Assembly (NCBI GenBank): GCA_964016885.1
Contig: OZ024764.1
Location: 3,844,001-3,908,000, forward strand
Source: Eledone cirrhosa
Lineage: Eukaryota
DNA: 64,000 nt
Reading direction: 5' to 3'
The position numbers and the translations under genes were made by a program. The notes under the pieces were generated by a model. It searched no databases and was not told the origin of the DNA. It was given only the letters and a program-made list of their open reading frames with translations. The first letter of the stretch is position 1, and every line of letters starts with the position of its first letter. This document shows, one piece after another, positions 51,121 to 53,454 of this stretch.

Positions 51121-51399
51121 TATATATATATATATATATATATATATATATACACATATATATATATATATATATATATATATATATATATATATATATA
51201 TATATATATATATATATATATATATATATATATATATATTGGAATAAATGCTCTGAAATAGCGATATATATGTGAATATAGACATAGAATATTCGAAAAT
51301 ATTCTGTATGTTTACAATAAACATTTTGAAGACCTAATCGCTATAGAATAGAATACGTCACGTATTACAATTAGATTCTCGATAAAAGCAAGGGAAGTA

Positions 51400-51438
51400 A
51401 GTCTACGCGTTTCATTCTCGTTAGAAATCGTCAGGACT
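51400..51438 (-). ncRNA. Hammerhead ribozyme (also 51711-51749, 52022-52060, 52333-52371)
   Basis: Reverse complement of 52628-52666. Confidence 0.75.
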
Positions 51439-52627
51439 ACATATCCAGTGCTTTTATCGAGAATGACACAGCTAGAGACTTATAGAATACTTAGCTGTGT
51501 ACAGGAACTGGTTTGAAAGAGCGGTTGCCGGTCCGGCAGAAATTAGAAATTGGAATAAATGCTCTGAAATAGCGATATATATGTGAATATAGACATAGAA
51601 TATTCGAAAATATTCTGTATGTTTACAATAAACATTTTGAAGACCTAATCGCTATAGAATAGAATACGTCACGTATTACAATTAGATTCTCGATAAAAGC
51701 AAGGGAAGTAAGTCTACGCGTTTCATTCTCGTTAGAAATCGTCAGGACTACATATCCAGTGCTTTTATCGAGAATGACACAGCTAGAGACTTATAGAATA
51801 CTTAGCTGTGTACAGGAACTGGTTTGAAAGAGCGGTTGCCGGTCCGGCAGAAATTAGAAATTGGAATAAATGCTCTGAAATAGCGATATATATGTGAATA
51901 TAGACATAGAATATTCGAAAATATTCTGTATGTTTACAATAAACATTTTGAAGACCTAATCGCTATAGAATAGAATACGTCACGTATTACAATTAGATTC
52001 TCGATAAAAGCAAGGGAAGTAAGTCTACGCGTTTCATTCTCGTTAGAAATCGTCAGGACTACATATCCAGTGCTTTTATCGAGAATGACACAGCTAGAGA
52101 CTTATAGAATACTTAGCTGTGTACAGGAACTGGTTTGAAAGAGCGGTTGCCGGTCCGGCAGAAATTAGAAATTGGAATAAATGCTCTGAAATAGCGATAT
52201 ATATGTGAATATAGACATAGAATATTCGAAAATATTCTGTATGTTTACAATAAACATTTTGAAGACCTAATCGCTATAGAATAGAATACGTCACGTATTA
52301 CAATTAGATTCTCGATAAAAGCAAGGGAAGTAAGTCTACGCGTTTCATTCTCGTTAGAAATCGTCAGGACTACATATCCAGTGCTTTTATCGAGAATGAC
52401 ACAGCTAGAGACTTATAGAATACTTAGCTGTGTACAGGAACTGGTTTGAAAGAGCGTTTCGAATATTCTATGTCTATATTCACATATATATCGCTATTTC
52501 AGAGCATTTATTCCAATTTCTAATTTCTGCCGGACCGGCAACCGCTCTCTCAAACCAGTTCCTGTACACAGCTAAGTATTCTATAAGTCTCTAGCTGTGT
52601 CATTCTCGATAAAAGCACTGGATATGT

Positions 52628-52666
52628 AGTCCTGACGATTTCTAACGAGAATGAAACGCGTAGACT
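52628..52666 (+). ncRNA. Hammerhead ribozyme (also 52939-52977, 53250-53288)
   Basis: agtc CTGACGA t ttct aacg agaa t GAAA cgcg TA^ gact; palindromic stem III acgcgt. Confidence 0.75.
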
Positions 52667-53454
52667 TACTTCCCTTGCTTTTATCGAGAATCTAATTGTA
52701 ATACGTGACGTATTCTATTCTATAGCGATTAGGTCTTCAAAATGTTTATTGTAAACATACAGAATATTTTCGAATATTCTATGTCTATATTCACATATAT
52801 ATCGCTATTTCAGAGCATTTATTCCAATTTCTAATTTCTGCCGGACCGGCAACCGCTCTTTCAAACCAGTTCCTGTACACAGCTAAGTATTCTATAAGTC
52901 TCTAGCTGTGTCATTCTCGATAAAAGCACTGGATATGTAGTCCTGACGATTTCTAACGAGAATGAAACGCGTAGACTTACTTCCCTTGCTTTTATCGAGA
53001 ATCTAATTGTAATACGTGACGTATTCTATTCTATAGCGATTAGGTCTTCAAAATGTTTATTGTAAACATACAGAATATTTTCGAATATTCTATGTCTATA
53101 TTCACATATATATCGCTATTTCAGAGCATTTATTCCAATTTCTAATTTCTGCCGGACCGGCAACCGCTCTTTCAAACCAGTTCCTGTACACAGCTAAGTA
53201 TTCTATAAGTCTCTAGCTGTGTCATTCTCGATAAAAGCACTGGATATGTAGTCCTGACGATTTCTAACGAGAATGAAACGCGTAGACTTACTTCCCTTGC
53301 TTTTATCGAGAATCTAATTGTAATACGTGACGTATTCTATTCTATAGCGATTAGGTCTTCAAAATGTTTATTGTAAACATACAGAATATTTTCGAATATT
53401 CTATGTCTATATTCATATATATATATGTATATATATGTTTCTATACGTGAACAC

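Follow-up and report, generated by a model that had tools for sequence, protein, structure and literature searches.

The 311-bp array analysed here is one insertion of a young repeat family, non-coding and present in high copy number, that carries a type I hammerhead motif in each unit. In the preferred reading, both strands of a (TA)n tract were likely nicked by the protein of a Penelope-like element (PLE), which then used a single RNA of monomer length, probably a circle, as template for reverse transcription from two starts 35 nt apart. The palindrome seen at the locus is a by-product of insertion. A wider claim is put forward tentatively: that behind each of the roughly 1,700 insertions in the genome stands a dimer of the PLE protein that copied a single RNA circle, made by the ribozyme, two times over, from starts 35 nt apart and onto opposite target strands. 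Judged from its sequence, the family is a real retrozyme-type family with a clear PLE footprint and is probably still active. Positions refer to the window, i.e., the whole 64,000-nt stretch of Eledone cirrhosa DNA that was analysed, and phases are numbered from the first base 3' of the ribozyme cut (phase 1).

Array structure and hammerhead motif

TRF reported one 311-bp array at 51238-52456 (3.9 copies, 100%) and a second at 52457-53424 (3.1 copies, 99%). Base-by-base comparison placed the arms at 51238-52456, with the ribozyme on the minus strand, and at 52457-53415, with the ribozyme on the plus strand. The locus holds 3.92 inverted and 3.08 direct units, with one internal substitution (52549) and seven type I hammerhead motifs, which upholds the original prediction of seven near-identical monomers in two opposed arms differing by a single base. 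Phases run from 166 (outer) to 192 (inner) in the left arm and from 106 (inner) to 131 (outer) in the right arm, and both flanks of the array are TA tracts. The locus had also been described as a giant palindrome; its arms are indeed head to head, but it is not a true palindrome because the centre is asymmetric, with phase 192 meeting phase 106. The features are as follows.

51119..51237: left (TA)n target tract (across the family, 94 of 101 outer ends adjoin TA-rich DNA)
51238..52456, minus strand: arm B, 3.92 units, outward-facing 3' end at phase 166
51238..51272, minus strand: 35-nt 'tail' (phase 132-166), present at the left end only
51400..51438, minus strand: hammerhead motif, A17 at 51404
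51711..51749, minus strand: hammerhead motif, A17 at 51715
52022..52060, minus strand: hammerhead motif, A17 at 52026
52333..52371, minus strand: hammerhead motif, A17 at 52337
52456..52457: inner junction where the arms meet head to head (phase 192 against phase 106), flush and without microhomology
52457..53415, plus strand: arm A, 3.08 units, outward-facing 3' end at phase 131
52549..52549, plus strand: the single internal substitution
52602..52691, plus strand: ribozyme domain, closed by a perfect 16-bp helix (52602-52617/52676-52691) that lengthens stem I
52628..52666, plus strand: hammerhead motif, type I, predicted GUA cut after 52662
52663..52973, plus strand: cut-to-cut monomer, 311 nt, 35% GC, the predicted circular RNA
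52751..52751, plus strand: locus-private G at phase 89, in all seven units of both arms (A in the other 51 of the 52 insertions compared)
52753..52872, plus strand: phase 91-210 block around both fixed ends, the part best conserved against an older sister family (67-80% per 30 nt)
52939..52977, plus strand: hammerhead motif, predicted cut after 52973
53250..53288, plus strand: hammerhead motif, predicted cut after 53284
53416..53437: right (TA)n-rich target tract

We infer that the 35-nt tail is the interval between two reverse-transcription start sites. Two other repeats lie close to the insertion. A piece of another small element with a palindrome-like AGCCGTCGAAACGGCT occupies 50975-51118 and ends at the same TA tract, and a longer inverted form of this element was found at locus L137. 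A high-copy SINE-like repeat lies just to the right, at 53447-53560.

The units are non-coding, as had been predicted: no stop-to-stop frame within them exceeds about 60 codons, and the array contains no ORF with RT and GIY-YIG domains. A tandem, non-coding unit of 311 bp and 35% GC fits the size and GC range of non-LTR retrozymes (about 150-400 bp, low GC), and the predicted fold of the circular monomer has z = -5.1 against 100 shuffles. The proposed description of a retrozyme-like tandem unit with a type I hammerhead is supported.

All seven units contain the predicted AGTC-CTGACGA-stem II-GAAA-CGCG-TA^GACT arrangement, and the plus-strand cut positions (52662, 52973 and 53284) and 311-nt monomer length came out as claimed. 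The motif consists of a 4-bp stem I (AGUC/GACU), a CUGACGA (CUGANGA) plus GAAA core and a 4-bp stem II (UUCU-AACG-AGAA) on a basal U.U pair. Stem III (ACGCGU) is palindromic and can pair fully only between two motifs, which is compatible with the suggested dimer fold. The ribozyme domain folds with z = -4.4, and none of 200 shuffles did as well. A hammerhead model search, by which the motif was to be checked, did not recognise it: no Rfam match reached the gathering score, and no hammerhead model matched at E<=10. The predicted minimum-energy fold also differs from the active hammerhead fold. As modelled, the hammerhead is weak: stem II starts on a U.U, stem III is predicted not to close within a monomer, and the active fold is not the minimum-energy one. 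A U.U at this position and dimer-dependent cleavage are both reported for axolotl retrozymes (PMC7229834, as far as covered), one of nine predicted Xenopus retrozymes is reported to have cleaved in vitro (10.64898/2026.07.22.740005, as far as covered), and the ribozyme of an Anolis PLE is described as requiring protein (PMC11167929, as far as covered).

Among 54 insertions with a complete motif, variation fell at N7, loop II, distal stem I and position 10.1, where a U to A change restores a pair. The ribozyme core was invariant in 13 listed family genotypes, a listing that required an intact core. When stems were compared across three families (this one, an older sister family and a third motif at 4898), 84% of cells were paired against 31-46% in slid controls; five of nine pairs had changed on both sides, a covariation count drawn from only five informative and related rows. 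The third hammerhead-bearing element (window 4840-5030, motif at about 4898 on the plus strand) is also head to head with one arm longer, was found again in L125, L132 and L121, and has a stem II that likewise begins with U.U.

Insertion layout and unit haplotypes across the genome

We took genome counts on the 3.0-Gb assembly (1,796 contigs). The ribozyme pattern had 13,195 exact matches on many contigs, so the copy-number check suggested with the original prediction identifies a multi-copy family and not a one-off locus. Ends at phase 131/140 running into (TA)n numbered 1,191 and those at phase 166 numbered 1,006, with none for the reversed-pattern control in either case. With about 7.5 units in each, these counts correspond to an estimated 1,700 or so insertions. 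The family is dispersed, and its ends meet (TA)n without an LTR-like frame, in keeping with a non-LTR retrozyme.

We parsed 56 insertions, comprising the window, its 14 best similarity matches and the 41 first-listed A-type ends on one contig (C1). Inverted A and B arms lay head to head in (TA)n in 46 of the 56, with similar outcomes for the similarity-chosen set (13/15, window included) and the A-end-chosen set (33/41). The remaining ten comprise three that ran off the fetched stretch and seven that are apparently single-armed (two and six, respectively, of the eight in the A-end set), at least one of which has a second arm of roughly 10 nt. Outer ends lie about 131-140 nt (A) and about 166 nt (B) past the ribozyme cut. 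The tail, found at one end only, measures 35 nt from phase 131, or 26 nt when the A end is placed at phase 140, an ambiguity caused by TA. Matches to PLE protein occurred in five of the 56 stretches, outside the arrays.

In the original prediction, the inversion was given a special role, allowing sense ribozymes to be met by read-through from either direction. The inversion is instead the ordinary footprint of the family, and it matches the published inverted-copy-plus-tail structure of PLEs. Read-through of both arms would, moreover, likely first yield about 1 kb complementary to the sense units, sequestering the ribozymes.

The inner breakpoints showed no significant phase preference (Rayleigh p about 0.17), although some of those at phase 90, and some gaps in the parse, trace to the private base of the window. 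Breakpoints of the two arms were mutually independent: their circular distance averaged 77.4 nt over 42 insertions, where about 78 nt is expected. A single breakpoint of 84 lay 5 nt or less from the ribozyme cut, giving no sign of a template 5' end there. With each locus's own unit as reference for the junctions, microhomology of at least 2 nt (2-5 nt) was found at 17 of 34 filler-free junctions, compared with 18% by chance, and filler sequence at 4 of 38 junctions. Independent breakpoints together with junction microhomology fit a pair of cDNAs that were primed separately and then joined by their free ends. Fold-back self-priming was rejected on the mutual independence of the breakpoints, and a linear template with its 5' end at the cut site does not fit them. 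A few loci had more complex histories: L046:2643-2820 contains an extra inversion with a repeated breakpoint pair, L031:6174-6175 has an internal 14-nt back-jump, and L069 is a duplicated insertion beside an assembly gap.

Because both arms are multimers, the units of each insertion report on its template. The 52 insertions compared fell into 25 haplotypes, with fixed differences between insertions (2.7 per unit) and few singletons within them (0.04% per base). Both arms carried the same haplotype in all 38 testable insertions; within the A-end set the agreement was 26 of 26, compared with 13% for insertions paired at random. Each of the 13 variants confined to a single insertion was present in every unit covering the site, and partial variants occurred in only five insertions. 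A variant that arises in one unit and ends up in all of them points to repeated copying of a monomer-length template, and rolling-circle reverse transcription of a circle would supply that. Three long arrays (L057, L061 and L083) carry variants repeated in a subset of units, a pattern consistent with some later local duplication.

Proposed mechanism and its rivals

The preferred reading can be laid out as a series of steps. An array would be transcribed, and its hammerheads, probably acting as dimers or aided by protein, would cut the transcript; a host ligase would close the 310/311-nt monomer. A Neptune-type PLE protein, perhaps as a dimer, would then bind the block around phases 91-210 and nick both target strands. 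One cDNA would begin at about phase 131-140 and the other at about 166, each rolling round the circle for a mean of 3.7 turns until drop-off. The free cDNA ends would be joined, often via 2-5 nt of microhomology, to give an inverted multimer pair with a one-sided tail. Several observations count against this reading. No partner PLE was matched among 64 loci, eight of the 41 A-end insertions did not show both arms, the hammerhead is weak, and only one of nine predicted Xenopus retrozymes is reported to have cleaved in vitro. The junction in the window lacks microhomology, 4 of 60 singleton alleles recurred in more than one insertion, and the covariation count has just five informative rows behind it.

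The main rival is a uniform linear multimer. Here the same PLE double-priming would copy a long uncut transcript of one donor array, with the ribozyme inactive or acting later and the circle not needed. Donor arrays are uniform, and some reach at least 24 units per arm, so a long uncut transcript of a single donor also gives matching arms; with such donors, a monomer bottleneck limited to some generations would be enough for haplotype concordance. The weak hammerhead motif favours this rival too, as does the PLE studied in vitro, which is described as using mainly uncut RNA as template with the ribozyme dispensable (PMC11167929, as far as covered). A mutation in one unit of a linear donor would, however, be passed on as a single-unit variant, and we instead found haplotypes and private variants fixed across units, with few partial variants. 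An invariant ribozyme core, within the limits of that listing, alongside a variable N7, loop II and distal stem I, and stems that compensate between families, also argue against a dispensable ribozyme. On balance we regard the linear multimer as unlikely, although it deserves to be kept in view.

We think it improbable that short monomer or dimer insertions grew later by unequal crossing-over or slippage, with gene conversion homogenising the arms, i.e., satellite birth. This model has been put forward for animal retrozymes (10.64898/2026.07.22.740005, as far as covered), the subset-repeated variants of L057, L061 and L083 are a sign of some local duplication, and most loci of the older sister family have one or two units per arm. 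The insertions are nevertheless very young by their singleton rate, yet 74% of 62 arms exceed two units. Local growth would also have to account for the complete agreement between arms, and it leaves the two fixed ends unexplained by itself, so that a PLE insertion would still be needed.

An assembly or chimeric-read artefact at the locus is very improbable. Among seven sequencing contig runs, none was shown to span 52456/52457 or to join an arm to its flank. Insertions with this layout nevertheless occur on many contigs; their outer ends are fixed, while their inner junctions differ and their flanks are unrelated. A fold-back read should produce symmetry at the junction and a mirrored flank, and the locus shows neither. 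The locus-private variants speak against polishing towards a majority sequence. In the contig runs, X4, X7 and X9 each yielded a single 340-nt contig, and X4, X7 and X13 showed a joint back by one unit. We did not accept the X4, X7, X9 and X13 contigs as a sign of either a circle or horizontal spread, since a tandem array at low depth assembles alike. X7, X9 and X13 also contain fragments, at low depth, of the SINE-like repeat next to the insertion, a picture that resembles carry-over of trace DNA. Run X1 covers all 30 bins and may be the source sample.

Candidate partners and relation to known elements

Returning to PLE-driven copying of a monomer-length RNA, we searched the same genome for GIY-YIG proteins and found frames with RT and GIY-YIG domains and a CX2-5CxxC linker (150 of 10,596 candidates scored), the linker being a mark of Neptune/Nematis PLEs (PMC8557442, as far as covered). 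Two PLE families have many frames of 777 or 784 codons in copies 99-100% identical, a range that leaves out one copy with a truncated second frame (L176). In the two young PLE families (D and F) the ends abut (TA)n and lie 109/145 and 124/164 nt past a degenerate hammerhead, with tails of 36 and 40 nt, close to the 131/166 geometry of the repeat family. The Neptune-type copies at L166-L179 have degenerate hammerhead cores, with UUGAAAA replacing CUGANGA and, in one family, GCAA replacing GAAA, and keep a palindromic stem III (ACCGGU).

We found no PLE sharing sequence with the end block of the unit among 64 loci (50 GIY-YIG loci and 14 young PLE copies), searched with blastn and a two-sequence profile; only separate insertions of the repeat family or its relatives matched. 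The PLE families seen have tails of about 36-60 nt, and none is homologous to the 311-bp unit. The older 313-nt sister family (L087:2425-2880, L136-L165; 1,420 first-look candidates) is 58% identical overall and 67-80% identical around the ends, has the same two ends and tail, and shows a stem III of ACAG-A-CUGU. Because this family is best conserved around the shared ends, the phase 91-210 block is a likely candidate for the PLE-protein binding site.

Non-LTR retrozymes and the inverted-tail insertions of PLEs are each already known. As described for metazoan non-LTR retrozymes in the covered parts of two reports (Cervera and de la Pena, 2020, PMC7229834; Li et al., 2026, 10.64898/2026.07.22.740005), our family has a non-coding tandem unit of about 300 bp with GC under 45%, one type I hammerhead per unit, a self-paired predicted circle and PLEs in the same genome. 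Like axolotl HHR_Amex2 (PMC7229834, as far as covered), it has a U.U mismatch where stem II begins, and like the dimer-acting amphibian motifs, as far as their descriptions were covered, a palindromic stem III. Unlike published retrozymes, as far as covered, nearly every insertion here is a pair of head-to-head multimers with two fixed 3' ends, a 35-nt tail and (TA)n, an inverted layout not described in the covered parts of PMC7229834 or 10.64898/2026.07.22.740005. Expression and cleavage are reported for published retrozyme families, as far as covered, whereas for the present family cleavage is predicted from sequence. In our literature search, which covered open-access main texts, no description of two-armed multimeric retrozyme insertions or of matching haplotypes in the two arms turned up; material relevant to the novelty of the layout could lie in the supplementary figures of PMC7229834 and in the tables of 10.64898/2026.07.22.740005.

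The insertion features themselves resemble those of PLEs, for which an inverted 5'-truncated copy and a one-sided tail of 30-40 bp are hallmarks (Craig et al., 2021, PMC8557442/10.1101/2021.04.23.441226, as far as covered). Head-to-head inversion, a one-sided tail, a microsatellite target and 5' truncation with microhomology are all shared with PLE insertions (PMC8557442, PMC3846280, as far as covered), and the family differs in having no ORF and in that both arms are multimers of a 311-nt unit, which serve as internal markers of template identity. Arkhipova et al. (2013, PMC3846280, as far as covered) proposed that PLE inverted copies arise by self-priming, a model with which the independent inner breakpoints found here are at odds. 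In the covered parts of an in vitro study, purified PLE protein cut and extended both strands from two internal RNA starts, the interval between which equals the tail (Frangieh et al., 2024, PMC11167929). That element, Anolis Poseidon (PAc), is alike in the cutting and extension of both strands, the AT-rich target, the two starts downstream of a hammerhead and the predicted protein dimer. It differs, as far as covered, in being autonomous and in using linear uncut RNA with no circle or multimer shown, and the likely partner here is Neptune-type. The Chlamys non-autonomous PLEs, e.g., MRC1 (PMC8557442, as far as covered), are likewise passengers with multicopy head-to-tail insertions; they differ in that their 3' end resembles that of an autonomous partner and in belonging to a clade mostly without hammerheads, whereas no partner homology was found here.

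How animal retrozymes move is stated as open in the covered retrozyme literature, where PLEs are merely candidate movers with no motif pointing to a partner (PMC7229834), and a 2026 preprint links retrozymes to PLEs by homology and favours local tandem growth by unequal crossing-over (10.64898/2026.07.22.740005). The origin of PLE inverted copies is similarly unsettled (PMC8557442, PMC3846280, as far as covered). The present family, young, abundant and with repeated units as internal markers, ties a retrozyme to PLE chemistry via its insertion footprint and predicts exact start sites, at 131-140 and 166 nt after the cut. Should the circle be copied twice per insertion, the family would provide genome-scale evidence for animal retrozyme circles as a transposition intermediate, and the inverted-copy-plus-tail of PLEs would consist of two independent cDNAs on one template, joined by microhomology rather than made by self-priming. 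A 311-nt RNA and intact 777-/784-codon PLE frames in one genome make a small test system for rolling-circle target-primed reverse transcription.

Elsewhere in the window, two Rfam tRNA matches were found at 6369-6442 (minus strand) and 2451-2521 (plus strand), together with many young tandem arrays of 60-140-bp units (53580-54399, 55749-60030, 36880-37560, 43182-43518 and others).
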